A DNA stretch of 64,000 nucleotides, taken from Vermamoeba vermiformis (Eukaryota). Positions 15,739 to 48,443 of the stretch are shown here, one piece after another (within the stretch, counting starts at the first letter, position 1; every line of letters starts with the position of its first letter). The stretch covers positions 434,001 to 498,000 of the forward strand of contig JBEWZL010000011.1 in NCBI GenBank assembly GCA_045837725.1. Reading direction: 5' to 3'. The notes beneath the pieces were generated by a model, which had not been told where the DNA came from, did not search any database, and saw nothing but the letters and a program-made list of their open reading frames with translations. The position numbers and the translations under genes were made by a program.

Positions 15739-18700
15739 CTACATGAGCATGCAACGTCTTTTGTCGTTCTCAGCTTCATTATCGCTGAAAATCTTATCTA
15801 TCGCTAAAGTTAAGGCCGTATCCACAACTTTGTCGACGTTGTAACCAGTCAATGAACTGCAAGGAATATAGCCCTTAGCTCCGATTTGTTGACGAAGCAG
15901 TTCTGCCTAACAATAAGGGTCGTTAATAATGTAATTGCTAGTTTCTATTATTGGATCTTTACCCGTTCGTCAGTGATCGGCGCTAGTTTTTTCTCCTTCA
16001 ATTTTTCGATTGTATTGAGATCATCTCTAAACGATAATATTAGTATCTAATCCATATATACTATTTTAGAGGTTGTAGTGAGACCCATAATCAAAATTAA
16101 AACTTGCCTCAAATCCGCTTTGGATCCAACGAGCAATCTTACAGCAGAGGGACAATGGTGCGTTACTTCAGGATACCACTATAAAGTATTGTTATAATAA
16201 AGACATGAAGCGCACTTACCCTCGCTGACATATTCTCATAAGAAGTTTGCGAGATCAACGAAAACCTGCAATGGATGGAAGTTAGAAATGTTTGATAGGC
16301 ACTATAATACGTCTAAAAATGAAGCGCTTACATCATCAAAAAGACGTCAGTCATTGGGTACGACAATGGACCTATAAAATGAGTTACAATCGTTAAGTGG
16401 CTTGTACTATATTATAAGCTTACGAAGTCTGTCATACTCTTCACCACCACCACAAACGTCCCAGAGTGTAACTCTATAAGACACGTACATTTTTGTTAAT
16501 AAGGCCTTTTGTACAACGGATCAAGTCTTACACCAAAGGTATGTTGTTGTGGACCTTCTCTATTGAAGACAGCATGGTTAATTTCGTAATGCAATTCATA
16601 AGTCAATAATACTTACGAGCTGAGTAATTATCGAAGACAGTTGGGACGTATTCATCTAAACGAAGGTCAGATCTGATCAGCCGTTACACGAAGCACAGAG
16701 ATGACTTACGAGGGAAAGCTCTTGTAGTATATCTTATCAAGAAGCATGTCTTGCCAACTACACCAATATCCCGTCAGTTGAATTCAAGTTTTCGAATAAA
16801 AGTAATCTGATCTACCTGCACCACATCCAACGACAACAAGCTTGACTGCAATTCCTTGAATTGGTGTGCCTCCCATCCAACCGTATTTTTGATAGTTTTC
16901 TTGTTTGATACCTATGTAACGAGTTAAGTTGTAACGTAATCGATGCGATCTGCAACTGTACTTACGCTTAAGAATTTTCTTATAATGAGCAGCAGAATGT
17001 GCCTTCAAATCCGATTTTACTTCTACATTTACGCACTTAGTATCATAAACGAGAAATCTCCTTTTGAAAGATTGAACATACCAGGATCTACGACAAGCAG
17101 ATCTCGCCACTAAGACGAAGAATTTGTTAGTAAGGTTAGTGCGTAAGCGAAATTTACCTGAATCCATAACAAGCAGATCTCGCCACTGAAGACGAAGGCT
17201 TAGTAACGTTAGTATAACAATATGTGCTATATCTTACCAAATAACCATCACCTGTGAGCTGATTCCATTGCTTGCTGACGGAGTTTGCTCGTACAAGCGA
17301 AACCATATCCAGCTTCTCGAACACTTTCATAAGAATTTCTTCGGGTATCATCGGCAACAAATTAACTCGAATAGGTATCTTAATGAAGTCATTGAAGGCT
17401 AGATCTTCATTATTGCGTCCACCGAACACAAGCAAGAAGCCTTGAAGTGTGAGAGCGGAGTGAAAGTAGCGAGGAGCGGGGGTGATGTGGCTTTTTTTGT
17501 CGCTTGTCAAATTCTTCCAGGACTTGTTGGAAAGATTGAACGACCACAATTGATTGTATGCTTCTTTGCCGTTCGTGCCTCCAAACATGAGAAGTGTTGG
17601 TGCCAAGTCACCACCGACCCAAGTCCACGTGTGACCGTACCTTCATCGCATTAGCTTACAGATACTAATATTTATATTATAATCGCACCTAGCAGATGGT
17701 TTAGCACCCTTCACCTTGACTTCTTTCCACGTATGTCTGACTGATATCATGACGTTAGTAAGGCAAAAATGACTCGAAAAGTCACTTACTCAAGTCGAAT
17801 TCCCACACATTGTTATCTGCATCACGACCTCCAAACAGCATCATCTTGTCGTGATATATGACACACGTGTGATGGAAGCGAGGAGCAGGTGTGTCTTGTG
17901 ACCTTGATTTGATGAGTTCCCACGAGTGTTGTTGCAAGTCGAACATGAACACTTCGTTGCTCGTGAAGCCACCGTTGTCGTAGCCTCCAAACACGACCTG
18001 ATAATTTAATTTTTTGTTACAATAGTAGCATTTTAAGCTTATTCCAACGTACCATCTTGTCGTTCCAAACACAAGCAGAGTGACCATATCTTCGCGACGG
18101 AACTGTTCCTTTCACTTCAAGTTTGACCCATTTGTTATTAGCTACAAAAATCACGTGCCGTTAGTTTTATACGTTGTTTTTTATCGAGCTTTGATGGGCC
18201 TATTATTGCACGTGCGTCTTTAACATACTCGTGTCCAAGCAATGAACATCGTTGTAGTACCCGTTACTCTTGCCGCCTATTTATGATTTGTATTAGCGAC
18301 ATGGTTAATAGTAATCATCGTATTGCTTACCAAAGACGTAAAGACACTTGTTGAAAACAACGGTTGAATGGAAATGTCTTCCGTGTTCGAACAATTTCAT
18401 TTCTGATGGTGGCAAGAACGAAAGACTTTCTGTAGCCGTATTAATACGTTGTTATAGATTATTGACATATTATTATCTTACCGAAATCGAATTCAAGAAG
18501 CTCTCGGCAGAATTGTCCCTTCGCATCTCCTCCTCCTGAAGCGCGGTTTCGTTAAAAAATGATTAATACATAATTTTGTACTTACCCAGGACATACATCG
18601 TTGAGAATACGCCATTCGTCACTTCAAAGGCTAAAATGTCAAAAAAAAAAAATTAGAATTAAATTAGAAAATACGAAATAATTTTGTAGCGAGTAAGTTA

Positions 18701-19108: not shown

Positions 19109-22100
19109 CTACATGAGCATGCAACGTCTCTTGTCGTTCTCAGCTTCATTATCGCTGAAAATCTTATCGAGTGCTAACGTTAAGGCCGTATCCACCACTT
19201 TGTCGACATTGTAACCAGTCAACGAACTGCAAGGAATATAGCCCTTCGCTCCGATTTGTTGACGAAGCAGTTCTGCCTAAGAAAAGGTGCGTTAATAATT
19301 GTAATTGCTAGTTTCTATGCTTATTTGTTGGATCCTTTACCTGTTCGTCAGTGATCGGCGCTAGTTTTTTCTCCTTCAATTTTTCGATTGTAGCAGGATC
19401 ATCTCTAAACGATAATATTAGCATCTATTCCATATATAGACATTTTAGAGGTTACAGTGGACCCATAATCAAAATTAAAACTCACCTCAAATCCGCTTTG
19501 GATCCAACGAGCAATCTTACAGCAGAGGGACAATGGTGCGTGACTTCAGGATACCACTATAAAGCATTGTTATAATAAAGACAACCTTTGAAGCGCACTT
19601 ACCTTCACTGGCATATTCTCGTAAGAAGTTTGCGAGATCAACGAAAACCTGCAAGATCAAGTTAAAAATGATTGAAAGAACTATAATACTTCTAAAAATG
19701 AAACGATGCTTACATCATCAAAAAGACGTCAGTCATTGGGTACGACAATGGACCTATAAAATGAGTTACAATTGTTAAGTGGCTTCTACTATAGTTTAAG
19801 CTTACGAAGTCTGTCATAATCTTCGCCACCACCGCTAACGTCCCATAATGTAACGCTAAGACACTATTGTTAGTAAAAAGCCTCTTTTGTACAACGGATC
19901 CAAGTCTTACACCAAAGGTATGTTGTTGTGGACTTTCTCTATTAGAGACAGTATGGTTAATTTCGCAAGGATATTCATATATTCAATAATACTTACGAGC
20001 TGAGTAATTATCGAAGACAGTTGGGATGTATTCGTCTAAAGTAATTGTTAGCGAGGTCAGATCTGATCAGCCGTTACACGAAGCACAGAGATGACTTACG
20101 AGGGAAAGCTCTCGAAGTATATCTTATTAAGAAGCATGTCTTGCCAACTACACCAATATCCCGTCAGTTGAATTCAAGCTTTCGAAAAAAAGTAAGCTGA
20201 TCCTACCTGCACCACATCCAACGACAACGAGCTTGACTGCAATGCCTTGAATTGGTGTGCCTCCCATCCAACCGTATTTTTTATAGTTTTCTTGTTTGAT
20301 CCCTATGTAACAAGTTTAATCTACGTAATCGATGCGATCAGCAACTGTACTTACGCTTAAGAATTTTCTTATAATGGGTTGCTGAATGTACCTTCATATC
20401 CGATTTTACGTCTACATTTATGCAGTCAGTATCATAAACGAGAAATCTCCTTTTGAAAGATTGAACATACCAGGATCCATAACAAGCAGATCTCGCCACT
20501 GAAGACGAAGGCTTAGTAACGTTAGTATAACAATATGTGCTATATCTTACCAAATATCCATCACTTGTAAGCTGATTCCATTGCTTGCTGACGGAGTTTG
20601 CACGTACGAGCGAAACCATGTCCAGCTTCTCGAACACTTTCATAAGAATTTCTTCGGGTATCATTGGCAACAAATTAACTCGAATAGGTATCTTAATGAA
20701 GTCATTGAAGGCTAGATCTTCGTTATTGCGTCCACCGAACACAAGCAAGAAGCCTTGAAGTGTGAGAGCGGAGTGAAAGTAGCGAGGAGCAGGGGTGTTG
20801 ATCTTCTTGTCATTGGCCAAATTCTTCCACGACTTCTTGGAAAGATTGAACGACCACAATTGGTTGTACGCTTCTTTGCCATTCGTGCCTCCAAACATGA
20901 GAAGTGTTGGTGCCAAGTCACCACCAACCCACGTCCACGTGTGACCGTACCTTTACACCATCAGTATACTATACGTTACTATTAAATCGATTCCATACCT
21001 AGCAGATGGTTTAACACCCTTCACCTTGACTTCTTTCCACGTATGTCTGACTGATATCATGACGTTAGTAAGGCAAAAATGACTCGCAAAGTCACTCACT
21101 TAAGTCGAACTCCCACACATTGTTATCTGCATCACGACCTCCAAACAGCATCATCTTGTCGTGATATATTACACACGTGTGATGGAAGCGAGGAGCAGGT
21201 GTGGCTTGTGACTTCGATTTGATGAGTTCCCACGAGTGTTGTTGCAAGTCGAACATGAACACTTCGTTGCTCGTGAAGCCATCGTTATCGTAGCCTCCAA
21301 ACACGACCTACGTAGATCATACCATAAGCCTGACTGTTATAATAACTCTATGCCTTGTTGCTTGCGCGTACCATCTTGTCGTGCCAAACACAAGCAGAGT
21401 GACCATATCTTCGTGACGGAACTGTTCCTTTCACTTCAAGTTTGACCCACTTGTTCTTGCCTATTAACAATAACCGACATTAGTTTTGTTATATGACATT
21501 TTTAACGAGCTTTGGTGCCCTATTGTTGCACGTGGATCTTAACATACTCGTGTCCAAGCAATGAACATCATTGTAGTATCCGTTACTCTTGCCGCCTACA
21601 ATTAATTCATATCAATAGATGTTTATAACGATATCACTATCTTGTTTACCAAAGACGTAAAGACACTTGTTGAAAACAACGGTTGAATGGAAATGTCTTC
21701 CGTGTTCGAACAATTTTATTTCTGATGGTGGCAAGAACGAAAGACTTTCTGTAATCATATGAGTAGGTTATTATAGAGCTTTGATGTATTATTATCTTAC
21801 CGAAATCGAATTCAAGAAGCTCTCGACAGAATTGACCTTTCGCATCTCCTCCTCCTAAAGCACAACAAAATCAATTTATTGCTTAAAAATTATATTAATA
21901 AATGTTGTGCTTACCAAGGACATACATCGTTGAGAATCCACCATTAGTCACTTCAAAGGCTGACATTGAAATAATTAAATAGGGTATTAATTAACAAAAT
22001 TAGTTAGCGCAAATCCTCTTCGTGCAAAATAATTACCAGTGTGTCCATATCGTCCTGATGGCTCATATTTCTCTTTCTTTTCGTATAAAGTCACATTTCT

Positions 22101-22761: not shown

Positions 22762-25700
22762 ATGGAACTTGCCAATCTACCTCCTGAAATTCTCCATCAC
22801 CTTCTGTCAGTGATGGATACTCGTGCCATGGCTCATTTAATATGCTGCAATAAGCAATATAGCGAACTAAGAAATTCAATAGAATATTGGAAGCAGATCT
22901 ACCGTAGAGAATTTCCAAAAGTCAGTTTGACAAGTACATCCGTAGACAAAACCGATTGGTACTTGCTGAATCGATACGCAAAGCCATATGAAACTTGGAT
23001 TGTTTCACGGCAGAATAAATTTCCTGTAAACGAAAAATCGTGTGACAAAATCTTTTTCTTGTTTTATTTTTATTTTGATTTTGTTTGACGATGTTGAGCC
23101 AACAAGTGATCTCCTCCGCTACCTCAGCTGTGCAGCCCCTTTGTGCTCCCGTGCTGTCGGACTGCAGCGAGCTACACTCGGGAATGAATCCCAGTATTTG
23201 CTCCGCATCTGGTCGGCCTGGTGATGTCTTAGTGGATCCAGCGGATTTACCTGCGTTGCAGGAGATTACTCGTATACTTGGTGATGCAATGAGTGAGCGT
23301 CAGGCGCCCCGTAGCTCTGATCGCGACTGTAGTGGCCAAACAGACGCGAAAAGTACTGACAGCCCTCCTGCTCCCTTGTCGGCCCCAGAGTCTAATAATT
23401 TACAAGTTAAAACCACCAGAAGAGGGCGCAAACGAAAAAACCGTGCTAATAAAGACGCGCACTCGGATTCAGAGGTAATTCTTCGAATTTTTTATTTTAA
23501 TTCAATTTCTCATTGTTTCGCAGGCTGTAGCACAAGAACACAAGCGACAAAAAATAGACCACCCCAGCCAGCAGGTCATTGACACCAGAGTTACATGCAA
23601 CTTGTGCCAGGAACGGATCAAAGGATCGGAAATCTTCCCGCATTTAAAGTTCACCTGCGTGCCTGATTATGAAAAAAGAAATTTTCCCCAACATGTTGTG
23701 ACAGTCGTAAGTATATTTTAATAGAAATAATCAATTATTAAATTAATTTTTCAGATGGATCGGATGACTGCTACTCCACGCGCACACGAATGGCACAATA
23801 ATAATAATATTAAGTCTCGACGTAAGTCTATTATTAAATTATACTTATATATTATTATAATAATTATTTACGTGAAATTGGATGCACGATCGATGCTGTG
23901 GATTTTTTTAGTCCGCCTCCGACAAAGTTGGAGCCTTAGAATTGTTGCTTGGCTATTTTCATGCAGTGCTGCGACAATTCTAAGAGTATTTGATGATGTT
24001 ATGGCGGCAATTTTGAAATTAGCAGAGCAGCGGATTCAAATCCCTTCCTTGCAAGAGAGATTGACCAACGGTGTAACATTTTACGACGATATAGTTACAG
24101 TAATTATCGATGGCAGTGAACAACAAGTCAGCGTATCTCTCTTTTCGTGAAATTGAACGAGGAACATTCAGCGGAAAGAAAGCGAAGCACACATTCACAA
24201 TTTTACTTGCAGTAGCTCCAAATGGCAAGATTTATTATCTATCTCCATCGCAGCCAGGAGCAAAGCACGATTTTGCCGTTATTTCCCTGCCAGAAAATTT
24301 TTTTTGGCGTCATCTCGAAGAGTTTGAAGCTATTGGTGCCGACAAAGGATACGTTGGCTTAGATAAGCTTGTAGCACCAAATCCTGTGATATTGCCCGTT
24401 TCAAAACCGAAAACGAGAGAACAAGAAGAATTTAATAACGAGTTTGCCGCGATCCGAACAATTGTAGAAAATGTATTTGCCCAAATCAAGAAATGGAAGA
24501 TGTGCAAAAATACCTTCAAAATTAACGGTGACATCAATAATGCGAAGGAGAAGCACAACCAGATTTGGCGAGCTGCTTGTTTTCTTGTCAACGAATATGT
24601 AGATATGCGCCCAGTAAAATAACTGCTCCAATATAACGATCGTAGTACTGTGGATTCCGTCGTGGCTGCGGGGTAAAATTTATTTTTGATCTGTTGTGGT
24701 GAGTTAATTTTCGTATTGCAAAAAAATCGTCGAAAAAAAAATTTTCGATTTTTCCTTCGTGAAACAACCCAACTATTTTAGAAGCCATTAGAGCAACTAC
24801 GAAAGAAAATAGCACGATTTTTATTGCGCCTGGCGTTTATGAAGAAATAATTATTCTCGATCGGCTAAAAGAATCTGAGGATTTAAACAACAAAATCGAA
24901 TTAATCGGCTTAACTGACCGCAAATTCGTCAATGAAGTATTAACGGAGCATAAAGACCTCATTACAAGAGCTACTAATGGAAATATTGCCGATCGATCTG
25001 CGGATTTCACTTTGACTATTCCCACTGACAATCCATATTCTCACTCTGGCTCGCGTAATGCATCACTAGCTTATGAAAGGAAGAAATTCGAGGAAAAATT
25101 CAAATGGACTGGCACTGTTCGCGATCCTGTCGAGGCGGATGCAGTCATCATTCAATCACGCGGCGAATCGACCTTCCAATTATACGAAACTATACATCTA
25201 GAGGTAAGATATATACCAAATAATACTTGGCTCTAATTACGCTTTAATAAGCGGATCTAAAAAAAAACTTAAATTTTAAGCCTTAAAATATATATGGCCA
25301 GGACTTAAATTTTATTATTAGAATATTGTCATCCGACAAACTGACGAACAAAATGTGATTTCAAACCACTTTTGCATCGCTGCTACTGCCCGCCAAGATG
25401 AAGGAGTTTTGACTTTGAAAAATTGCAAACTGAGCGCTATTGCTGTTTCATGCGTATTTACCTCGTAAGTATTGATAGACCACCTAATATATGGATCAAT
25501 ACTAATGTGCATTATAATAATAGAGATACTGAATCGGTATTTGAAGATTGTTTGTTCTACGGATCAAGTCAATCTGGAATTTTTGCCTCTTACTATTCAA
25601 AAATTGACGTCAAAAATTGCGGTAAATACAATAATACAACATTAGTAGTATCAATTATTATATCTAACACCGTTTATCTTCTAATTTTAGTGTTTGCGAA

Positions 25701-27088: not shown

Positions 27089-30000
27089 ATGAGAAGACCA
27101 AGCTTCGTATTTTACGCGGTCTTTTTCTACCTCAATTACTACCTTGGTACCTTTTGGTACTTGATCTTCACTGCTCTTATTGCCGTAGGCCTTGCTTTCG
27201 CAATTAAAAGGTATTTTAAATTTAATATAAATATTTTTGACGCTAATTAATCCGCCTAGATTCGTATTTTGGAAATATTTAACGCTTGATCCTCCATCCA
27301 ACGCCGCAGTTTTGATTACCGGCACTTCAACTGGCATAGGAAAAGGATTTGCACTTCGGTTAGCTCAAGCAGGAGTGACTGTAATTGCTACTGTTCGTCG
27401 TCAAGAGGATGCGGACAAATGGCAAAAAGAGCATCCAGAACTCGTTAAATTCATTAAACCCGTTATTTTAGGTAACGCAAAATAATATAATAATATTATT
27501 ACTAATTATGATGCTATTTAGACGTTTCAAATGAGCAAAGTATCGTAGCTGCAGTTCCGATCGTCAAAGAAATTTTAAAAACCGAGCAAAAACAATTATA
27601 TTCTGTAGTTAATAATGCCGGTATCGATGAGATTTGTCCTATGGAATTATTATCGAAGGAAAACTTCGATAGAGTGATTGGAAGTAAGCCAATATTTTCA
27701 TGAACTACATCTGGGATCTTTCACTAACTTTTTAAAACTTCAAAAGCGAACTTATGGGGTCCTATTGCCGTCACTAAAGCCTTCTTGCCGTTGCTAAGAA
27801 TCGAAAGGTATTGTAAAAATGCATTTGGGTATATTTGGGGGGCATTGGGAGGATTATTTGATGGAAAATCAATGTTTTGTAAGATTTTAATAAAATTTGA
27901 TGTTGGCCCTTGAAATTACTTGCAAAAATCTGCAAATTTTCAATCATTGCTGCCCCATTCGGAAATCATTAGCAATTTCCAAATTAGGAAGGTTGCTAGC
28001 ATAAACAATGCTTTACAGCATGTACATACCATTCCAACTTGTCCCGTCAAATTCTGTCAATTACTAACTGTTTGCCAGAGTGCTCCAAGGTGGAAACAGG
28101 CAGTTAGTGTAACTAGCAAATATAACCATATATGGCAGGAGGTTATGGACATCATAAGTGGACCTTTACAAAAAACAATGATTTGAACTTGCCGCGCCAA
28201 ATTCCGGCAATTACTAACGACTTCCTTGTTGCTCGTAATCCTTGTAAATTCTGTTTTTTAACTGAAATTTCGGGATTTGACAGTAATTACCAAATTAGGA
28301 AAGGATGGGGCAGTTGGCATTTGTTGCACCATGGTTACTAAAGTTGAAACTTGTCCCGACAGTTTTTATCAATTACTAACGATTTGCTGATCACTTTACT
28401 ATATTTCTATATTAGGCAAGTAGAAAACTCAGTTTTCACCTGGGAAGTGCAAGGCATATAAATGATGAAGGGAAACTGTTAGTAATTGCCAGATCATATG
28501 CACACAAGTGCCAAGAGGAGTGTTTTGCAAATGTCCACCTCATGGACCCCTGATATGCACCACAAATTTCCTTTTTAGGCTATTCCATGCTATATACTTG
28601 CTTTTTGCACTGTATTTGCCCTAGGAACACTCAAGTAAGCATCAGACTCCAATTCTTTTGTGTACCATGATCTGGCAACCTTCAAAGCATCAAATCATGA
28701 TTACAAACCAGTGAAACACTTCCTAATATGGGCACCTTAGAGTAAAATGGGGTTTTCCCAGTTGATTTTCAAGAAAACAGGCTGTAACTTCAGCTCTACG
28801 GCATATTTTGATGTGCCGTTTTTTTTGTTCAACTTGCACTTCCATGTACTATGGGTTTTCTGAATAAAAAAATGAAATATACCCAAATGCATTTTTACAA
28901 TACCCTCCGATAAGACAATACACTCCTAAAGGCCGAGCTAAAGTATTGTAAGTCTGTTCCTCATAGGCGCGAACATAGCGGTTGACACGTGTCATTTTTC
29001 TAGCTTTTTGTCAAGCGTCGGAGTTTATCTTCCGCTCGCGTTTAACGGAATTTATGCCGCTAGCAAAGTAGTAAGTACTATAATATTTAATTATCAAATT
29101 TTAAGTCATTCTAACAAATTTTTTAGGCGCTTGAATGCGTTGCGGATGTACTTAGAGTTGAGGTCAAACCGTTTGGAATCGATGTCTCTGTTATACAACC
29201 TGTACGTATATATTCCTTAACCAACTGGAAGTCTACACGGTAGACGTACCAGAATTTGGACATGGCTGCTCCCATTTCTCATAAATAAGCTCAATAGTAG
29301 CCCAGGCTATCGTCTGTTGAGTAAATCTGAAGCAAACTGACTATCCCCAAACTCTCAGTGCCTACACACGAGGTTTTTTGCGTCAAAGCTGCCTCAGGCA
29401 CTTTCGTGCTCATGCTACACCACAACGTGTTACATGCTACTAACAGTTAGCCTAGCAGGTGATTATGTGAATAAATCTGAAGCAAGCTGACTATCCCCAA
29501 ACTCTCAGTGCCTACACACGAGGTTTTTTGCGTCAAAGCCGCCTCAGGCACTTTCGTGCTCATGCTACACCACAACGTGTTACATGCTATTCACACAATA
29601 GTTAACTGATAACTCCTTGTACAAAACTTAAAGATTTACACCTTTGAATTTCTTCCAGCACTTCTTGTGTAAGGCAACTTTGCACTGAATGCACTTGTAG
29701 CTAAGGCAATTAATTAGTTTGACAAAAGTACACCTACACATACTTACAGTGTAGAAGAAGATATCTTTTGAGTTTGACAAAAGAAACAACGCTTGGAGTT
29801 GCCAAATTCGTACGCACAGGTGTGGGTGTATGGATTATGCTTTCCACTGGCGCGCACAAGATCTAACGCTTCTATTGTGTAGTTTCGTTTCCTTTTTGAT
29901 TGGAATTCCTCTACCAGGGAGCGCGCTAAATTGGCAAGAAATTTCTTGGCAGGAATATCACTGTTGGTGAGTCTTTTGAAGAGTGTTTCTGCCTGAACTT

Positions 30001-33000
30001 GAGCAGAGCGCTCCCAATCTGCAAATACTAAGCGCTCTGTTACTTTTCGAATCCGGTAGGGCCACTTAAACTTCTTGGCTTTGGAGTTATGCTTATCCAC
30101 AGAACTGAAGTATGTCCGATATTGTTGCACCAAGTGGGGAGCAGAGTATGCAAGCTTTTTCTTTTTGTTTCCATCAATTACTTTTTCAGAAATTGAGGCT
30201 GCTGTTCCTCGATTACTAGCCCAGTGACAGGTCTTGCCTTGAGGGTCATAGAATGACATGATGATATCTGAGTCGTTTGTTAAGCTGCGCCATTGTCCTG
30301 GCTGTAAACAATGAGCAAGGTTGTTTTGAAACAGGTTAGGGTGTGATGTTCCAATAATGCCAACAGTGTATCCAATATTGTGCTTTTGCAGGTGCTGCCA
30401 TAGTGAGGAAAACTCTCTGTCACAAAATACATGATAGTGTGATAAGTTTCGAGTTGTCAGATTGTTCCATTCTTCATAATTTGTGGGTTCTCTAATAAAG
30501 TCATAAACGTGCCTTTGTTTGTCAGGGAGTCTTGACAATAAAAAACTGACGGCTTTTTCCAAATCGAAATTTGTCTTTGATGCTCGTGGAAACATTGTTT
30601 TAAATGGTAGAGGTCTTTGCGAAAGTTGACCTGTTTTGAAGGCGTGATATAACTCTCGCCATTTCTTGAACTTGTCTGTTATGGTAGCAAACAGTCCATA
30701 TCGAGGAATGAAGCCAGACATCCATCCACTTTCATCAATAATGACATATTCTAACATTGCCCAAGGGAATGGCTTGCGTAATCTGTAAATCTTGTAAATT
30801 GACCTTCCTTTCCAAGCATTTGCTTTATCATCTAAAGCAAGGTGGCTGAATGGCACCCATATTTCTGAGTAGGTTTGATTCAGAGCTGCCCAAACAAAGT
30901 ACACATCATACCTAAGACCAAAGGTAAGAACCATTACAGTGAGTGAACAACGAACTTACTTTTTGTTCCGGTGTATAAACTTGAATTCATCTTTTAGCAT
31001 TGTTTTAGCAATCCACCTGTTGCCCCACATGGCGCGTGAATGCAAAAAGGAGGCCCAAGAGTCATCAACAGAATGACCTGGCGATAATTGTTGTGCAATT
31101 CTAACACCAAGATAAGCGCGCAAATCGACTGCTTTGATGTGCAGATTTGCATCTGTTGTTTTTTCAATATGTTCAATTATGTCATTCATCATAAGTAAGT
31201 AACAGTCAAGCTCTGTGACACGTAGTGTTGAAGACAGTTTTGGCTTTCCCAGTTGATGACGTATTGCATTAATTTTTGTTAAGATGAGCTGGTGCTTTGG
31301 TCCTGGGTTTGTCAATGGTTGAGAAGTTTTGGGCTTGAATTTACTCCCATCGTTTTTCCACCCAGACAGTTTTGCTTGAAGTTTAGCTGCCAGTAATGGT
31401 TATCAAAATGATTAATGAATGAGAAATCAATACCTTCTTTCACTGCTGCAGGACTTGCGACTTCTGATGTCTCTTCATTATCTTCTTCAATTGATTCACT
31501 CATATCATCACTTTCGTTTGCTTCATATTCACTATCTGATATCTCTATTGGATCACTTTGACATGATGTTGAGTCCCATTCCATAAAATCATTAAATTGC
31601 TGTGATTCATTTCCAATAATTCGTGTGGGTCTGGACTTGGTTGGGGATGAAATACGCTGTGTGCAGTACACTAAGATATAAGCACTTGCAATTCCCTCAA
31701 ATAACCTCTGCATGAAGTCTTTGGGAGCCTACATTGAGGTTAGAACCTGCAAAATGGCATACTTTGACTACCTTTGAGACGACTGCATCATTGAGTTCAA
31801 GCCATTGGTTGTTCGCAAGGCTGTAGGTTACGTAGTGACCCTGTTTAGCAGTTCCTTGGTGCACTATTATTGATTTGAGTTGGTAGGTCTCTGCATGACC
31901 ACTACAACTGAGCTTTGCTGGAATAACTAGAGTTGACTTGAAGTGAAACTTCGCTTCATTCTTGTTGCCCAGATTATCAAAACGCTTAAGGTGGAGGACT
32001 AATGCAGTGGGGAATGTCAAAAATTTGTGTGAACCCCAGTCCTTATCATTGAATAAGTTAAAATCCAAGTCTTATGCAAATGTTACGTACACTGCTGAAA
32101 AGTTGAACTAAACTGTCCACAACATTGCCGGGGGCAACTGGAATTGAAATATCTAAATTATAAAGTCAATTGAAATTAAGTCGAGTTGCAGCAGTCATTT
32201 GTACCTATAAAAGGCTCCATTAATTCTGAACCATTACGTTGTAAGGCACCACCAAAAACTTGCTTTATAATTCGCTTGAACTCAGAGTCTTCAGTTAACT
32301 TGTCCAATAAATTGAGCAGAAACTCTTGTAAATCACGGTGTTCTTTTTGGTAGCTTGCTTTTGATATTTTCAATAGCCTTGTTAATGGTTCGATATGAAT
32401 TGTTTTATTACTCTTCATAAGTGTGATAATCTGTCGAAATTCAATCGCAAGTTTGTGTGTAGGTTTTGATGATATAACAAGCTCACGGAAAGCTTCAATA
32501 CTAAATAATAGCTGTAAAGAACTGCTAATGTAGCATGTGGCACCAAGGTTTACTACTTTGGCCATTGCCGAGGCACTTTTCGAGGTCGCGTGTGGTTCGG
32601 ATCTAACACATCAAAAATAAACTGAGTAATCATTAGCCATGTATAAAGTGATAATAACTCACCACTATTGTGCGAAATTTACTGGAATTTGTTTACAAAG
32701 ATGGCAGAAAAAACTCAAACAATAGAGTCCGGGTCCCCTAAATCGCCTGTACAAAATCTTCTCAATATGAAGTCGCACACCTATCAATAAGATTGTATTA
32801 ATAAGAGTGTTACAAATCGAAAGTACGACCCGAATAGTTGCAGCACAATGGCCGAACAGATCGGAGGCGTTAATTTTAAAAAATAATTCAAAATAATTCA
32901 AAAGTGCTTGTAATTGCTTACGAGGCACTCTATTATTAATATTATGATTTATCGCGATGGAATTAGTCGTTAATTTTGTTGTGATGCGAAGATCAGAAAA

Positions 33001-33631
33001 AACAAATCCAGCATCTGGCTTACCAACCAAAAGTTACGGCACTTCGCATCAATTGCCGTCAATTCAGGGACCACTTTGTACAGAAATATAACTTTAAGAT
33101 ATAAGTGTGGTCGTTCTATGTTGAAAAACGTAATTTTATTGTTACAGTCGACTGCGAAATATAATTTACTGATATTTAAATTTACTAATTACTATTTTTA
33201 GGGTGGTTTTGAAGGCGCTATTTTTGGTAAATTAGTTGCGACCTTCAAACAGTTTGCTGAAAGCCAAGCCAATAATCCAAGTACGTCCTATATGATATTA
33301 TATCTCCTTATTTACCAATTATATAGTCTATGATCTTTATAAGCCGCTTGGAGACAGATTAGAACAAACGGTTGAAACCAGATTTAAAAAGACTTTGAAT
33401 CCGGTCAGCATTTTAGCGGAAGAATTATACCACGCTCTATTCGATAGATATACTTCATATACTATTGCTTCAGGTACGTATCACATGCCTTTGAACGAAC
33501 ATAATTTCGGAGCGCTAACTTTTATCGGCTTAGGTTTTGACGCCGCGATTGCAGCTACTATTTATTGGTTGTTGCCTGACTCTGTAATGACTAAATTCGC
33601 CGCATTGTTAAACAAGTTGACTTTCCAATAA
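27089..33631 (+). CDS. Short-chain dehydrogenase/reductase (retinol/17-beta-HSD-like) with N-terminal TM segment, carrying two transposon insertions
   Basis: VLITGTSTGIG (TGxxxGxG), VVNNAG, KAFLPLLR..., FLSSVG, catalytic YAASK, VSVIQP|GGF across a 4-kb intron (about 29202-33201). Confidence 0.88.
27800..28911. mobile_element. Non-autonomous TIR element (1112 bp) inserted in an SDR coding exon, 4-bp TSD AAGA
   Basis: About 37-bp TIR ATCG(A/G)A(A/G)GGTATTGTAAAAATGCATTTGGGTATATTT. AAGA at 27796-27799 and 28912-28915. Excision restores LPLLRQYTPKGRAKV. Internal repeats of CAATTACTAAC and CCAAATTAGGAA. Confidence 0.9.
29322..29589. repeat. Two 118-bp direct repeats (29322-29439, 29472-29589; period 150 bp) downstream of the transposase stop
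   Basis: The copies differ at two positions. The unit contains GCAC-GAAA-GTGC on the minus strand and longer complementary segments. Confidence 0.9.
29628..32565 (-). CDS. USP (peptidase C19) deubiquitinase - piggyBac transposase fusion, 7 exons, 886 aa
   Basis: Exons 32565-32205, 32152-32091, 32041-31763, 31728-31434, 31386-30960, 30911-29748 and 29700-29628 total 2661 nt, and every GT-AG junction is phase-compatible. USP boxes NLGATCY, DLQEF, LHLKRF, HQG...GHYVTY, WLELND, AYILVY. piggyBac motifs LALDD...WKGR, VFCDREFSS, YFSSVDKHN and C-terminal CFFC...CIQC...LHKKC. Confidence 0.85.
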
Positions 33632-33889: not shown

Positions 33890-36800
33890 CTAAGCTACTG
33901 GTGTATGAGAACTACTATTCTCGGAAATTTGAACGTTGAATCCCAGATCGCGCAACTTTTCAGCGTCTTCTTTTGAAATGCAGTCGCTTAATATAGTAAC
34001 TTTTCTTCCTATTAAAGCCAAGCTTATCGTCCTTAAATCTTTCATAATTTTGTCCGTGACATTAAGTGTCACTCTTTCGAGGCCCAAGAACCTCAACTTC
34101 AGTTGCGGAATAATGTACGGCAATAATTCCGCTGCATTTCCAAGCTGCTGGCAAAGGCTGAGATCCAGTGTTTGGAGATTAGGACAATTTTTCAATAACG
34201 ATCTGGCTGCTTTGATATTGATGTTGTTTTTGACCATGAATAACGATTGCAGACTGGCACTTGCCAAATTTGGCGTGTAAGAATTGTAGCACATGTTGAT
34301 GATCGCGAGAAATTTCAATCCTGACAGCGCTTTGAATCCATCGTCGGTGAACCCCTCGCAAGCAACAATACTAAGGTTCACTAGGCTAGGACACTTCTTT
34401 GCAATAAGTTTCAGCGTCACGTCTAAAAAAATCAGGATCAGACTTTGACACTTTATTTTGACACGTGTCAATGATGACGTACCTGTCAAGCGATTGTTGC
34501 CGTCAATTAAAAGCTCTCGAAGACCTTCTCCGCACCGTTCGAATAAGGCCTCCATGCCAGAATCTAATTGCAAAAAAGTCAGCGAAAATTTGTGTTGGGA
34601 GAACGTGCTATGGCATGACTTTTGGTCACGTGTGTAAAGTTAGTAATTAATTCTTACCTGTCACTTTATCACAGTACGTGATGCTCAACGAGCTCAGTTG
34701 ATTGCATCCGATGCCAATTTGTTCGAGCATTTTGTCGTCGATCAAAGCCAATCCGTCTAGTGCTAGTGACTGCACTTCAGTTCCGTACAAAACCAAAAAA
34801 TTCAAGTCGCGCAATGTGATGGCGCTGATAGATGGGTTAAACACGATATCAAAACAGCTCTGAATGATGCTCGGATGAACTGCTTTCTTCTTCTCTTTGA
34901 TGTTACGGATCAGCTCGAGCGTCTTTTCTTTGTTTTTCAAGACTCGATAGACTTTGATAGCTTTCAAAAAAAACGTATCTGCTAGCTCTGATTCGACTAT
35001 AAACGCTGTTTCTAAACAAATCTCCACGTAAAAGATCAACAATGTTTCACTGAAAAATATCTTAGTCACGTGGCCAAATAAAGATAGATCTGGTCAAGGC
35101 TTACCTTCCAGGATAAATTCGCAAAGCGTCTTCCATCATGCCAATAGACTGCTTTAATAGGCTCATGCGTTCAGGTTGATTTGGTTGCTGTCGTGCACGA
35201 AGAACGAGATTACGTGACTCAGCAATGGAAACGACTGGCAACCGTTTAATCTTTGCAGTTATGCTTTCTATATCGGGTAATACGAAGCAGTAATTGGCAG
35301 GGTTTTTCGCGACTTCTTCAATAGAGGCTTGTGAAAAAATTATTCCGGAAAGTTCCTGTGTGGATCTGGTTAGAAATGTTGCGACGGAATAACTTTGTCA
35401 TACCTGAATACGGCGGAATAATCTATGGAACCCAACCTTCTTGATAAGATATTTGAGTGGGCTGGTAACGATATCCCGCAGATCGTCGTCTGGAACAATC
35501 GATGTATATTTTTTGGCAGATTGACACGCGGTTTGTTGCGAGCACGAGCACATAAATCCGCTTGCTGTATTGGCGTGATGCGATACTTTGTGTCCGTGAG
35601 ACTCATGGCACTGTTTAATGCACACGGAACAAATTCCCTTGGAAAAAAAATTGCTGTTAGAACCCACTTTTCCAAATATGGCAATACGTTACCTTAGCAC
35701 CCGTAAGCCCGCAACTGAAGCACTTGAAAGTAGTCATCGGGACACGGATTTCTCCGTACTTTGCCGTCGGACAAACTCCTTCTAAGATCGCAAAGGCGTA
35801 CTTAGTGGACGGATCTGTAGCGTCACGTGTCAATTCTTCCGCGGTTGGAAATCCTTCAAAACTGTCACGCAGAGTCTTATGCAACAGATGCCAAAACTCG
35901 TTAGTCGATTCTTTGTATTCAAATGTTCCTAGCACTTTGTTGCACATGTGCGCAATCAATTCTTTGTACGATTGCTCGGCCATGGATCTGACGCAAAAAC
36001 CGTGAGTTACCATATTAGGAAATAACAATTACTTACTGTAATGACCTCTTAGCGTCCCTTAGCATGTGCCACAAGCTATTTTTGATACTTCTGGCCACCA
36101 TTTCCAGGAGTAAAATTAGCTTGAAGTACGAGGATAGACTGTGTTTGTAGATCTGGGCCAGATATCTGAAGTGCATTAGATAACCTATATTTCTCGTGTA
36201 GCGTTCATGAAAAGTACCTTAAGTTAACGCCCGACGCGTGCAAATATTCTAATACTTCTTCCATCGTCAATTTTTCACTGTGTCTGTCGAGCAAAGTTGC
36301 GACCTTCGGGATAACTCCGGTCAACAAATTTTCAGTGGCCGCTCTGATATTTGCAGCATGCTCTTCTCTCTTAGGCTCGTGTATATCAAAAGAAGGGCTA
36401 CAGGCGTCTATATAAAATGTGTCAGTCCTCGCAGATCCCGATCTGAAACGGGCCTACCTGAACTCAACGGCTTGCTATAGCTCTTTACAAATTCTGGTCG
36501 GAACATCTTAAACAAGAAGCACCCTCTAATTCTCTTATCAGGAAAGGTCGGTGGCATCAATCGAGCGGTGTCTGCAAATGACACGTGTCAGATCTAGGAT
36601 CGGTATCGAAAAATGCTTAATATACTTACCAAGCAGGTAAAATCGTCCATCTTCACCTAAATGACCTTCAATATCTACAGGGAATGATATTCTTTTCGCT
36701 GCAAACCGTTGCATGCCAGCTGTGTGTTCGGCAAGGTTCAATCGTTTAGCGAGCTGTTCACGATATTTTAGCAGGCTTGTTAAATATAACACCGACTTAC

Positions 36801-38201
36801 TTCATTCATTTTCTCATTGAGGTCGTTATTAGAAGCCTTCACAGTCCTTAAAATCAAAGTTAATCACTATACTATAATCGCTATTCAACTTACTTTCCAC
36901 CGTCATCCGATCCATACATGAGTGTTGTATTTGACACGGGAAGTAGTGCAATGGCTACTAAGCGGAATCCAAGATAGTCGATCTACGCGTACATTAAGCC
37001 ACGAGAATATTAAGACAATCTTTGACTTACTAAACACATGAGTGGCGTGCATAGTCCTTCTATGTCCGCGTCTTGCACGCTCATTAAGCACAACATTTCT
37101 TGATTGGCTGCCTAAAAATACGCTTCTATTAGCTCAAGTTTATTATATCAGACAGTCTTACCTTCATAGCAGCATGATCTCCTCCATAAATGCCCTTCCA
37201 ATCGACTGCAAATTTGAACAAGATACCGTTGTAGATGAACTTTTCACCTCCTGCGCTTCCTCCCACAGCAAAAGGCTTGATTGTCCTGAACTTATTCTTC
37301 ACGAAGACCTCGGATATGATAATTTTGCCGTACATTTGAGCTATAGAATGCATCAGTAAAAATTGAATATTGGGTCAAAGTGGCGTACCTGTGGACTCGA
37401 AGTCTTGCGTCAGACTCGCAATTGATTTGTATTTCTTTAATTGCTCAGCGACAGTCGTTGGTTCAACTTCCATAACTCGCCTATATTCCGCGTTCCAATC
37501 ACGTGGGTTTCCTAACTCGACTTTGATTTTGCTGCTGGTCCGTGCCACTTTCTTGAGTTCTTTGCTCTAAATCAATACGATAAGCAATAGTATTTCGATA
37601 TAGTACTATTTCTAAATAGACTTACGAATTTATCGAGAAGACCAGAAATTTGTTTTTCTTTGTCGGCTGGTTCAATGAGGTTGTCTTTGAGTAGTACTTT
37701 AATATCTGTTACTAGAGTTTCGCTGTCACTGATCACACGTGTAGTGCACATTTTTTGCTGCTCTGAAGCAGGAAGATCGTCATTTAGGGTAAACCTAGTC
37801 GCAGTCGAATCCGTGCGATCGGATCTGGCCGACGTGACTTCTTCATTAACTGGCTCGAGATGATGATGATCTACGTCATCCCTGAAGCCAGTTGGATCGA
37901 ATTGTGTTTGTTGTAAAGCTGTTTGTAATACTCGTAGTGACTTCTTATGGAGCAGTTTTCTGTTTTGAAGGTTTGGACGAGATGGCAAAGAGAGCATGTC
38001 CAAACTCTTTTGGCCGATATACGACAACCTATGTGTTAATAACCTTGCATTTTCATGGTGATCGTATTCTACGTCGTCGTCATTTTCTTCTTCAGAGGAG
38101 CTGTAATCGACCTCTCCGTCGAGATCAATGGGTTCGCCCGTAAAATAAGCCATATTATCTAAAAAAACATCGTCAATATATTTCTCTAATTTTTCATGCA
38201 T
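33890..38201 (-). CDS. Clu-domain protein with UBR-like zinc finger and C-terminal LRRs, paralog 1
   Basis: RDWNAEY, GGEKFIYNGILFKFAVD, YLGFRL, YGSDDGG, PVDIEGHLGEDGRFYLL (Clu-type core). CFSC...ICSVCIKQCHESHGH...FMCSC. F-box-LRR-type repeats (CPSLVNLSIVACEGFTDDG, CPNLQTLDLSLC). Confidence 0.78.
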
Positions 38202-38627
38202 TTTGGTGATTAATAAAAATTCTAATTCAATTGAATTGGATGTAACGGTCGGATGTCCCAGATTTCACGTTCATTGAAAGATACGTAAGCTTGCCTTTTC
38301 TTTTATTATATTCTCAGATTCTCGGGAATTAATTCCATGACGCTATCCTTATCGGTCGAGTCGCTTCGTTTCCGATCTGCCTCGTTTAGTAACGTAGGTA
38401 AGACCCGCTAGATAGATTACTTAATCTATGTTGCCTATCATACACGTATAATAGAATTACCGTGGTGACAAAAAACATGATTGATTTCGTCGGGTCGCGT
38501 GGATTCTATTTTGAGGCATTGCGCCACCAACAGTTTTGAGACCCAAGTACACCGCATATTAGGATCGATTTAAGGTTAGTAGTTTATTTACAAGTTTGAC
38601 GACAGATCCGCAGAGTCGGGGGTGGAA

Positions 38628-41600
38628 CTATTTGACCTTCTTTTTTGTACTAGCTGTAGCATTTTTCAGGCTGAACGAAAACAGGGCATCCGCTTCTTTC
38701 TGCTTTTTTTCTTCCTATACAAAGAGGCATTAGAACATTCTACGTAAAGATTCGGAATATTGTGATTACGCCCGAATTACTGCGAGCAAATCCAAAAAAG
38801 TGCATAAAATACATCTTTAAGTAATTAATTCCATATTTAGGCATACCTCTGTATATTCCTTCTCACTCTCTTTAAACCAGATTTCATGCTCTTTCTTATC
38901 TTTACTTAGATCGTGTACCTCTGTGGATATGATCTTCGGTCGCGGAGATTTTTCCACCGGCGATACGCTCTTTGCCAAATTAGTAAAATTTCAAGATAAT
39001 CCTAAAATAGGCTCTGTGCTTACCTTTTTAAACCTCTTTACATTTCTGGACTGAGGCGTGGCCAATAACGACTGATTAGTGTTGTTTGTACCGGGATCCG
39101 TTGCACCAGCATCCGCGGTCTTGTTAGCTTTATCCTGCTTATCATCACTTTCATCAAAACTATTTGCCAACGATCCGCTTCTCTTTCGCTTCGTGCCTTG
39201 CTTTTGATCGTTGCCGGACTCCACTTGGTGGTTAGTATTGCTCGCTAGAACAGCGTTGACGTCGTTGGAGTCCAAGTCCATTTTGTCCTCGTTCGCATCC
39301 TCATCCTTGATCACGCGTTTACGTTGGGATTGCGGATCTTTATGGAGATCAGGGTCTTCTTGGTGAACACTATTATCGGACTTATCAGCGCTACTACTCG
39401 GGTGCGACGAGGTCGTGCCTTTAGCGGTGGACAAAGAGATCTTCTTGGATGACGCTGACCGAGCCGTTGACAGCGACAACTTGGGTCGTTTGTTGCTCGT
39501 GCTACTGTCGTTAACAGCTTCAGTCTGTTTGTTCTCGTCGCTGCTCAACTCCTTCGAGCTGGTCTTCGCTGACTCTTTCTTTTTGGCGTTCGTTTTTTCG
39601 GCTGCAACACGCTTCTTTTCAGCTTCTTCAGCGGCCTTTTTCTTCTCTTCAGCTTGCTTTCGTTTCTTTTCTTCTTCGGCCTTTTGTTTCTTTTCTTCGG
39701 CCAGCCGTTTCTCTTCTTCTTCGGCAGCCTTTTTCTTCTCTTCAGCCTTTTGCTTCTTTTCCTCTTCAGCGAGCCGTTTCTTTTCCTCTTCCTGTTTCTT
39801 TTTCTCTTCAGCGGCAGCCTTTTTCTTCTCTTCGGCCAGTCGTTTCTTTTCTTCTGCGACGCGTTTCTTTTCCTCTTCAGCTTTGGCCTTTTCTTCCGCC
39901 TGTCGCTTTTCCTCTTCGGCAACTTTCTTTTTCTCCTCTGCTTGTTTCTTTTTCTTGTCTTCAGCAGCTTTTTCAACAGTCTTCTTGATAGTTTTGCTCG
40001 GCTTCTCATCCGCTGACTTCTCATCGAGGTTTATCGTGACAGGCGCACTTGGCGTTGATCGCTTAAACATGTCTTTAATGGTCTTAGCGGGGGCCTTCTT
40101 CGGTGATAACTCGCTGCTCTTAGGCTCGACTTCTTTTGTATTTTTCTTCTCGTCAACAACCTTTTTGGCCGAGGGCTTTGGCTCGGGAATCGTGAACGCC
40201 TCTATTATCAAAAAAGGTCAATAAACGTTTTCGATATAAACCTAGCACGTACCTTTCGGAGGCGGCAATGGATTACAGTATTTTTCGAGAGAGCTGTACA
40301 GAACTGAGAACCCGATCTCGTCTTCTGAAATGAGTTGAAACTCAAAGTCCTGCAGCATCTTAACCTTCTGTTCGACTACCATCTTCTCGTCTTTGCCTAC
40401 GAATAAAGTTAAGATATGCTTTTAGGGTTGCACGTGACACGTACTTAAAGTGCTCAAAAAGTCTGCGGGATCGATGAAGCACGCAGTCCTATTCTTCAGT
40501 AAATAATCGACTGTGAAGGGCTCGGTCTTTTCAGCCACTTGTGCCGCTGATTTTTTCTTCTTCGGACTCTTCGTGACCTCGTGTTCTTGAAATGATTTGA
40601 CCGTAGTGCCACCTGCTGTTTCGACGATTCGGTATGCCTTAAGATACTACAAAATGGGCTTAATAAAGTTTATATAATATAAAGGTGTGTAGTAGATACG
40701 TACCTGCTTCTCTGTCATAAAAATAAACGTCTTGCCACTGAACAATGTCCTCCTCTTTGGATCAGGTTTGAACTGATGCAGGCTGCATTCATCTTCTTTC
40801 AAAGGCGGCAAATACCTTGAATACTATTATTACTCGAGTCTTAACATTGCCTTATACGTACTTTGCTGCGTCAGGTAATGGTGCAACTAAGCCATCGTTT
40901 TTGGCTTCGACGTCAAGCAGCCATTGCGGTGTAATGACGTGAATGCAGTCAGTCAGTGCTAATAGGACTTTAGAGGTGACTTCTAACTCGGTCATCACTA
41001 AATGAGTGATTTTTGTGGGCACGTAATCATTGTACACGTGCGCACCTAAAAAAAGTTGGATCAGGCTTAAAGTTATTCGAAGGTTTCGATAGACTCGTGG
41101 TAAAGATAATATATATGTGGCATTATAAGTTTGAGTTATACTTACCAATTTTCATTAAAGTGTTTTGTACAGAGGCCTTGATCTCGGGTTTGACATTCGA
41201 AAAACAAATATCAATTGGCTGGTATTTCACTTTCAGTTGACTATTGTTGACTCCAAAGACTATAATATCGCCTTCTTTAAGTATAATCTCCTTATCTACC
41301 TCGCAGCGGACTCTGCAAAAATGCGCGATCAGGATCCGTTACATACTCTTGGTCGATATTCTATAGAAATAACTTACCTATTTACAAATGTACCGAACTT
41401 TGATTTGTCGATAACGGTTAATTTCGCAAGGCTGTTAGCGTCGGATGGGTTTTTTAAGGGTGACACAAGTAGTTCTGCATGTAGGCGCGATACAGATTTA
41501 TCGTTGATTAAAATATCGCAATCTATAATAAATATGATGATTATGCAATCGAATACAATAAACTCTAATTTTTAAATAATTATTAGAATATTGATTTTGT

Positions 41601-48006: not shown

Positions 48007-48443
48007 ACAAAAAACTTAAAATTCTAACGTCTGTTTATTTAAGAATAAATGGTGAATTATAATAGTTCCTTTTTATGCAGCTCAAACAAAATGTCAGTTT
48101 GCCGAGCACGGCTGAAATACATCAAGCACGTGCTCTGGCTCCTCAGCAAAATAAATTTTCTCCGCGACCGAACATTAAATTTCTCGAGCGTATTATCGTG
48201 ACACTAGCTCTGGCACATACGAGGTATCGTATTTAGTTGCATATAAATACTAGTTTACGCGAACCGAAAATAGCTATTTTGGTTAAGAATTTAAATTCAA
48301 ATTGCATCATTCAAGTCAAAACAACTTATTTTATTTAAAAGTAATTTTAAATAATACTTATAATAGTATATTTACCATTGAATGGTTGCTCTTCGATTCA
48401 GTTTTAGAAATTTTAAAATTAATTATTTTATCTTTTAGGCAAA

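Follow-up and report, generated by a model that had tools for sequence, protein, structure and literature searches.

A piggyBac-like gene of Vermamoeba vermiformis with a predicted N-terminal deubiquitinase domain: a probable transposon nested in a host intron

OTU or Ulp1 domains are found at the C terminus of Ginger1 transposases, and Ulp1 and OTU domains also occur in Mutator-like elements and in Helitrons, respectively (PMC2836005). In Helentron-type Helitrons, deubiquitinase domains of the VTD and OTU kinds are frequent, and enzymatic activity has been demonstrated for two of them (PMC9741609). One sentence in PMC2836005 mentions a Trichomonas vaginalis protein (XP_001314237.1) that combines a transposase_11 domain (pfam01609) with a Peptidase C19 domain. 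The roles proposed for transposon proteases are the protection of transposition proteins from degradation and an action on repair factors (PMC9741609, PMC2836005). The ubiquitin pathway has been suggested to take part in transposition (PMC2836005), and the passages of PMC2836005 and PMC9741609 on OTU, Ulp1, and VTD proteases of transposons present no role as shown so far. Here, we describe a gene from a 64-kb stretch of the amoeba Vermamoeba vermiformis (GCA_045837725.1, JBEWZL010000011.1:434,001-498,000; hereafter, the window, whose positions serve as coordinates). The gene is predicted to encode an intact ubiquitin-specific protease (USP) domain joined in one frame to an intact piggyBac-type transposase.

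PGBD1 carries a SCAN domain N-terminal to a piggyBac-derived transposase. In CSB-PGBD3, a host-type domain likewise stands N-terminal to a piggyBac-derived transposase, and the two are spliced together (PMC12062965). The disordered N-terminal region of piggyBac (about 100 aa) is acidic and required for full activity; its function is unknown, and such a region counts among the hallmarks of this superfamily (PMC9499001). Target duplications other than TTAA and inverted repeats as short as 4 to 5 bp are on record for a few piggyBac elements (PMC10813416).

Gene structure and predicted domains

The gene lies on the minus strand and was modeled by enumerating phase-compatible GT-AG introns and reading the sequence; its coding parts are carried by stop-to-stop frames between 32610 and 29628. 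Removal of six GT-AG introns (43 to 52 nt) from the coding sequence (32565..29628) joins seven coding exons (Table 1) into one uninterrupted protein of 883 aa. In this protein, a USP/UCH domain (aa 1 to 257) is followed by an acidic linker (aa 258 to 336), a core with three catalytic Asp residues (DDD), and a Cys/His tail (aa 830 to 874). The predicted catalytic residues are C11, H210, and D226 for the USP domain and D499, D636, and D744 for the transposase.

A preliminary description of this DNA had already read six phase-compatible GT-AG introns into a single frame, with a protein start at 32565, the junction GAA G/CT AAA at 31433/31387, a C-terminal Cys-rich domain, and the motifs NLGATCY, GHYVTY, WLELND, LALDD, VFCD, and SSVD. 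Our model agrees with this reading: all six motifs are found in the protein, Cys/His residues occupy the tail, intron 4 is the correct junction and is present as described, and the transcript leader (see below) is in accord with the start codon. The length given there (886 aa) did not hold. The difference of 3 aa is probably due to an alternative 34-nt intron 3 (donor at 31762), which would add these residues; the RNA contigs show the 43-nt form. The two Pfam profiles named in the same description, UCH (PF00443; cut-off, 23.9 bits) and DDE_Tnp_1_7 (PF13843; cut-off, 22.4 bits), were both matched above their cut-offs.

The UCH profile was matched by the first frame (58.2 bits) and the second frame (65.3 bits), and the two matches span profile positions 3 to 129 and 142 to 239 of 254. 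The Cys box aligns to the catalytic domain of USP34 (E value, 7.3e-10), NLGATCY being identical letter for letter, and the His box GHY and the ND pair align to GHY and FND of Ubp8 (E value, 3.7e-7). The domain is compact (about 257 aa) and begins 10 residues ahead of the catalytic Cys. No close full-length USP relative was found by a word-based search, which is weak evidence. The DDE_Tnp_1_7 profile was matched by the 403-aa frame of exon 6 (43.3 bits) and, weakly and under the cut-off, by exon 5 (14.9 bits). Residues D27/D28, D164, and D272 of exon 6 (i.e., D499/500, D636, and D744 of the protein) are invariant in all eight aligned sequences.

Transcript evidence came from one public run (X8), labeled as probable RNA only, whose contigs are cDNA-like: across the two strands they show seven short joints of the GT-AG type, and of the 10 placed pieces, 8 are at least 99% alike. 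These joints confirm three coding introns (2, 3, and 5) and two introns of the 5' untranslated region. Three raw RNA runs labeled with the species (X20 to X22) yielded 0, 1, and 0 reads over 4.8 kb including the host gene described below, too few to inform. Leader exon 2 ends in TG, which together with A32602 forms a TGA in frame, 12 codons ahead of the start codon, and the spliced leader contains a single upstream open reading frame of 14 codons. Because of this in-frame stop and this one short upstream frame, we place the protein start at the ATG at 32565. Transcription starts upstream of leader exon 1, between 33110 and about 33163.

A second locus and the relatives of the transposase

Among metagenome contigs, three loci (L001 to L003) were picked up by a scan, of which only L001 is close. 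It lies on a 4,379-nt contig, matches exon 6 at 65% identity, and has the same order of frames. Its six introns (44, 54, 39, 43, 46, and 48 nt) have the same positions and phases as those in the window, and its protein is open over 887 aa, with 58% amino acid identity overall and 61% nucleotide identity in the coding sequence. The catalytic motifs are kept as NLGSTCY, GHY, ELND, VALDD, VFSD, and ASVD, and the nine Cys/His residues of the tail (830 to 874) are kept both in L001 and in the relatives P0004 to P0006. The introns of the two loci resemble each other barely above chance (z of at most 2.4 versus shuffles).

The proportion of synonymous differences (pS) between the window and L001 is about 0.8 (i.e., saturated) in all parts of the gene, while that of nonsynonymous differences (pN) is 0.35 in the USP domain, 0.26 in the transposase's N-terminal part, 0.22 in the core, and 0.10 in the Cys-rich tail. 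The tail is the most conserved part (pN/pS, 0.11), and the linker is relaxed (pN/pS, 0.82). Both enzymatic halves are under long-lasting purifying selection. Since an independent locus with 61% identity keeps the six introns, their phases, and the open frame, the open fused frame is more than a matter of chance, and selection has maintained the same USP-transposase architecture in two distant lineages.

A HMMER search with exon 6 against 1.84 billion representatives (E value of ≤1e-3) returned 37 relatives, the closest with 66% identity and five of normal length with about 24 to 32%. DDE_Tnp_1_7 was matched by 33 of the 37. None of the 37 matched UCH, a result to be read with the fact that a USP domain lying upstream would escape gene calls made at the ORF level on contigs with introns. 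P0004 and P0006 are complete standalone transposases, and the core has, as do P0003 through P0008, about 60 additional residues between its first and second catalytic Asp. The gene belongs to a small, divergent piggyBac-like lineage. Because no relative matches UCH and P0004 and P0006 stand alone, the USP domain would be a gain within a sub-branch of the clade.

The L002 locus (a metagenome contig of 1,790 nt) is of the standalone P0004 type, with 28% identity to exon 6, an acidic N terminus, and no USP domain in the 703 nt upstream, which shows that the clade also occurs without this domain. A frame change near positions 830 to 955 of that contig suggests an intron. No fused relative was found by word-based searches with exon 6 and USP exon 1 (weak evidence) or by scans of viral contigs and genome contigs. 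The Atlas returned piggyBac clusters only, none of them with PF00443.

Insertion in a host intron and alternative explanations

The whole gene, leader included, is nested in opposite orientation in a 4,000-nt intron (29202-33201) of a plus-strand gene. The host joint 29201->33202 (GT..AG, seen in RNA) skips these 4,000 nt, and the other joints of the host skip 46 and 56 nt. The host gene was read as SDR-like by eye, from YAASK and PFGIDVSVIQPGG (PFGI.V..IQPG); a Pfam search with its short exon pieces gave no match. Excision of 29209-33163 would leave an intron of 45 nt, in keeping with the size of the other host introns.

The 3' noncoding region of the gene is homologous to that of L001 (62% over 404 aligned columns), and this homology stops sharply at 29209, 7 nt from the host exon. 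Beyond the boundary, the flank of L001 is unrelated to the window and contains no SDR-like exon. In addition, an X8 contig (151 nt) matches 29210-29300 exactly and beyond that carries 60 nt of a third flank, one not present in the window. One 3' boundary (29209/29210) is thus associated with three different flanks (i.e., those of the window, L001, and the X8 contig). Each of two tandem repeats downstream of the stop codon contains a 21-nt motif, GTTGTGGTGTNNCATGAGCAC (29406-29426 and 29556-29576). Both the window and L001 contain two occurrences of this motif at a distance of 150 nt, all without a mismatch, where chance would give 0. Because it is perfectly kept though synonymous sites are saturated, the motif may be a cis-acting site, and the repeats that contain it are candidate transposase binding sites. 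TRF reported no array on L001, despite the 150-nt spacing of the motif. Neither the terminal 20-mer nor the 21-nt motif has an inverted partner within the window, and Rfam gave no match on 28600-33400. Toward the 5' end, the alignment of L001 to the window across the first leader intron scores 73 (a value without a control), and that of the first leader exon is not significant (32 versus 26 ± 4.4), L001 being cut off before its 5' end.

Several observations weigh against interpreting this locus as a mobile element that encodes a single fused protein, and we consider them here together with the alternatives. At the protein level, LALDD, VFCD, and SSVD align to LSLDE, YMDN, and GVDR of piggyBat in a weak alignment (E value, 0.12); the AF2 model of the core, made from an eight-row alignment, is poor (pLDDT, 54.7); Pfam gave no zf-Tnp_2 match on the tail fragments, which were scanned unjoined, the domain being split by intron 6; and the USP domain, read by eye, has a shortened fingers region and lacks zinc-ribbon cysteines. 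Even so, the top three Foldseek matches of this model were to piggyBac (6x67) and piggyBat (9c0f) (E value, 7e-6 to 3e-4; probability, 0.98 to 1.0; TM score, about 0.2). A modest Pfam match to piggyBac and the small number of relatives found would be in keeping with a decaying relic or an artefact of frame joining, i.e., a frame open by chance with no protein product, but this explanation is scarcely credible in light of the frames of 883 and 887 aa, the catalytic residues and splice sites kept in two loci across saturated synonymous divergence, and the spliced transcripts. A further contrary point is that no X8 contig covers 31337-31497 (depth, 0), a region that includes the splice of intron 4 (31433/31387). 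With this intron retained, the USP frame in the window stays open for 41 more codons, so that a stand-alone USP would end at 31312 and the transposase would be untranslated or separately started. L001 keeps intron 4 at the same place and phase; with the intron retained there, the frame would close after 3 codons, and the read-through tail is therefore not conserved. Exon 4, moreover, is a single open stretch that holds both the last USP helix (..SAYILVYCTQR) and the acidic segment (79 aa; 20 D+E versus 6 K+R), and intron 3 upstream of it is spliced in RNA. In an alignment with P0004, P0006, and P0008, the acidic segment matches the acidic N terminus of the standalone P0004, and the clade motif GW..F.P..GP.W..IL..IN begins at W339, 8 residues past intron 4. 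The linker is the counterpart of the N-terminal region that piggyBac transposases typically have, acidic and presumably disordered. The frame of exon 5 has no ATG ahead of the GW..GP motif, and its first Met lies about 68 residues in. The N-terminal region of the transposase would be translatable only through the splice, because it starts in the USP exon and the frame of its motif lacks an ATG. Since the transposase part is also under purifying selection, two separate products are improbable, and conservation in L001 together with this frame logic makes a single fused product, read through intron 4, highly likely.

The remaining contrary points concern the ends and the copy number of the element, and they bear on the main rival to a transposon, a domesticated fusion gene. 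On that account, the USP-piggyBac protein would be immobile and kept for a cellular function (e.g., programmed DNA cleavage or chromatin or ubiquitin regulation), and the conserved 3' sequences would be regulatory elements of the 3' untranslated region. No terminal inverted repeat was detected (best score, 18, versus 19.5 ± 2.5 for shuffled sequences); the two ends share only an inverted 6-mer, TATATT/AATATA (29209-14 and 33158-63); no TTAA duplication was found at the inferred ends, of which the 5' one is uncertain; and the 64-kb window contains one copy. The 5' end at about 33163 was set solely by the expected intron length, and the third flank comes from a single 151-nt contig of depth 2.1 that may be chimeric. 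With two introns in the leader and six conserved ones in the coding sequence, the gene is built like ordinary genes, purifying selection has been strong across saturated synonymous divergence, and domesticated piggyBac genes, such as PiggyMac, often retain the DDD triad. Domestication is nevertheless rather unlikely in our view, because the gene forms a 4-kb block nested in an intron while the other introns of the host are of about 50 nt, the L001 flank lacks the SDR-like exon found here 7 nt from the boundary, a third flank adjoins the same boundary in X8, and the homology breaks off abruptly behind a block of 40 nt with 90% conservation. With L001 (5' side cut off) as the one comparison locus, we did not find a fixed orthologous position with loss of the ends; the terminal block is kept, and the flank is unrelated. 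Because no terminal inverted repeat and no TTAA duplication were detectable, transposon status is probable rather than shown. We consider the locus to be, probably, an autonomous and divergent piggyBac-like cut-and-paste transposon whose transposase carries an N-terminal USP deubiquitinase, and the element is likely to be mobile.

For such a transposon, the transposase would bind the terminal block of 40 nt, which is conserved, together with the two 150-nt subterminal repeats. The transposase of this lineage would have gained an N-terminal deubiquitinase, which, being tethered, would strip ubiquitin in cis or nearby. We favor a role in shielding the transposase from ubiquitin-dependent degradation; alternatively, ubiquitin may be removed from histones or repair factors at the site of excision or insertion. 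Any one of these roles is put forward tentatively. It is possible, and at present speculative, that the lineage is active and its transposase depends on its own USP domain, which would take ubiquitin off the transposase, or off chromatin or repair proteins where cleavage occurs, and would constitute a built-in counter to host ubiquitin-based restriction of transposition. If true, neither a DDD cut-and-paste transposase nor the USP fold would have an earlier example of this kind.

Table 1. Features of the USP-piggyBac gene, its probable inserted unit, and the adjoining host exon (positions in the window; introns of the coding sequence are numbered 1 to 6)
Feature	Position	Strand	Length and phase	Remarks
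Probable inserted unit	29209..33163	-	about 3955 bp	3' end well supported; 5' end (about 33163) tentative
Leader exon 1	33024..33110	-	minimum extent	RNA contig 6: 89 nt beyond joint 32778->33022
Leader intron 1	32781..33023	-	243 nt	GT-AG; RNA joint (CT..AC on plus strand); donor TTG/GTAAGC
Leader exon 2	32663..32780	-		RNA contig 6; no ATG; terminal TG
Leader intron 2	32603..32662	-	60 nt	GTGAGT..TTAG; 14-letter loose end of the contig at 32663 equals 32602-32589
Coding exon 1	32205..32602	-		Start codon 32565-32563 (coding part, 32565-32205); aa 1-120; Cys box NLGATCY with C11; UCH E value 1.3e-15
Intron 1	32153..32204	-	52 nt, phase 1	Outside RNA contigs; L001, same position and phase, 44 nt
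Exon 2	32091..32152	-	62 nt	Encodes DISIPVAPGNVVDSLVQLFSS, USP domain; in L001, DISIPVTSGDIVDGIVQTFNS
Intron 2	32042..32090	-	49 nt, phase 0	Spliced in RNA, joint 32040->32090 (cut +1)
Exon 3	31772..32041	-		His box GHY (H210), WLELND (D226); UCH E value 8.8e-18
Intron 3	31729..31771	-	43 nt, phase 0	Spliced in RNA, joint 31727->31771; contig 4, 126 nt each side
Exon 4	31434..31728	-		USP end and 79-aa acidic linker
Intron 4	31387..31433	-	47 nt, phase 1	AAG/GTATTG..GGCAG/C; L001, 43-nt phase-1 intron at the same place
Exon 5	30960..31386	-		Transposase N-terminal region, GW..F.P..GP motif (W339); frame 30956..31399
Intron 5	30912..30959	-	48 nt, phase 2	Spliced in RNA, joint 30908->30957 (cut +3); contig 3, 133 + 288 nt
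Exon 6	29748..30911	-		D499/D636/D744 core and start of Cys/His tail; PF13843 E value 3.8e-11
Intron 6	29701..29747	-	47 nt, phase 2	Outside RNA contigs; L001, same place and phase, 48 nt
Exon 7, coding part	29628..29700	-		YKCIQCKVALHKKCWKKFKGVNL and stop codon; end of Cys-rich domain
Two tandem repeats	29318..29595	-	150 nt each	Downstream of stop codon; family D1, 96% identity
Terminal block	29209..29248	-	40 nt	90% identical to L001, E value 9e-10; ends ..CCAGTTGGTTAAGGAATATA; palindrome GTCTAC..GTAGAC
Host exon end	29127..29201	+		..LRVEVKPFGIDVSVIQP, spliced to 33202 (GGFEGAIFGK..)

Other repeats and gene families were observed in the window. One coding exon of the SDR-like host gene (..AVTKAFLPLLR/QYTPKGRAKVL) is interrupted by a 1,112-bp element at 27800-28911 (+), whose terminal inverted repeats measure 37 nt and are 95% complementary. 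In an X8 contig, 27765-27794 is continued without a gap by the sequence from 28912 onward, i.e., the contig shows an empty site, and a short direct repeat TAAGA/AAGA lies at the edges; the assembly and the organism of X8 thus seem to differ by the insertion of a non-autonomous DNA transposon. The PIF/Harbinger-type transposase at 23731-24622 (+), with matches to HTH_Tnp_4 (E value, 1.8e-5) and then DDE_Tnp_4 (E value, 2.5e-23) in adjacent frames, represents another DNA transposon or a relic, 5 kb from the USP-piggyBac gene. Three tandem paralogues with F-box and Kelch repeats and nearly identical N termini (RYGHTWTWVGGDLAPTLLMFGGTNGKEAYNQLWSFNLS..) are located at 13085-13519, 17154-17642, and 20338-20952 (-), and they represent a recent local expansion of a gene family. 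Similar frames also recur in the same relative order: one set comprises 33890-35093 (-), 51747-52877 (+), and 56580-58043 (+); further sets comprise 37572-38264 (-), 48423-49358 (+), and 53432-54247 (+), and 50839-51441 (+) and 55873-56274 (+). According to the ORF listing, they encode LRR-type proteins with ..TLDGLPFxDDETxKF.., proteins sharing ..EQQKxC.., and Cys-rich proteins, which points to the duplication of a cassette comprising two or three genes. A 408-aa frame dominated by Lys/Glu/Ala repeats (..AEEKKKAAEEEEKRLAEEKKQK..) at 38991-40217 (-) coincides with a strong anomaly of both AT-skew and GC-skew in the 38-40 kb bin.

Comparison with described systems

The OTU, Ulp1, and VTD proteases of transposons suggest that ubiquitin/SUMO signaling bears on transposition. 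The gene described here would add a compact natural fusion of a textbook deubiquitinase fold with the best-understood family of eukaryotic cut-and-paste transposases, and with its two halves both preserved by selection in two lineages, it makes any function of the deubiquitinase in transposition directly testable. The disordered N terminus of piggyBac, whose function is unknown, would serve as a linker here. The fusion also bears on which N-terminal additions piggyBac-type enzymes tolerate, a family widely used for gene delivery.

A full-text literature search returned no description of a USP/UCH domain in a piggyBac element or in a gene of piggyBac origin. The statement in the preliminary description that no piggyBac with a C19/USP domain is known is borne out to this extent, but a C19 domain together with another DDE transposase has been mentioned for Trichomonas vaginalis (PMC2836005). 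That protein (XP_001314237.1) is alike, by description only, in combining a C19 ubiquitin hydrolase with a transposase of the DDE type that falls in the IS4-like Pfam group; it is not termed piggyBac in the passage of PMC2836005 concerned.

The USP domain resembles those of cellular USPs (i.e., USP34, Ubp8/USP22, USP36, USP12/46, and USP7) in its Cys box, His box, and catalytic Asp and differs from them in its small size and, by our reading by eye, in the lack of zinc-ribbon cysteines. The transposase shares with piggyBac and piggyBat (PF13843) the profile match, the motifs of the DDD triad, an acidic N terminus, and a putative C-terminal Cys/His domain; here, however, it belongs to a very divergent clade, with the extra residues between the first two Asp residues and the N-terminal USP domain, and the CCC..GGG inverted repeats and TTAA duplication of piggyBac elements were not found at its ends. 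CSB-PGBD3 and PGBD1 also have an N-terminal host-type domain on a piggyBac-derived transposase. Whereas these are immobile, lineage-restricted vertebrate genes that arose by exon capture at a host locus, the gene in the window is part of a compact unit in the intron of another gene, with differing flanks, and its additional domain is an enzyme rather than a regulatory domain.

In carrying a cysteine protease of the ubiquitin/SUMO system in a transposition protein, the predicted fusion is similar to OTU- and VTD-bearing Helitrons and Helentrons, Ginger1, and Ulp1-bearing Mutator-like elements. It differs from these in its protease, which has the C19/USP fold, and in its transposase, which is of the piggyBac superfamily, and it differs from Ginger1 in that the protease is N-terminal rather than C-terminal. 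Since the Trichomonas C19-transposase and the OTU-, Ulp1-, and VTD-bearing transposons are already known, the USP-piggyBac gene represents a variant rather than a new category; as far as our searches reach, a protease-bearing transposon is new for the piggyBac superfamily and for the USP fold.

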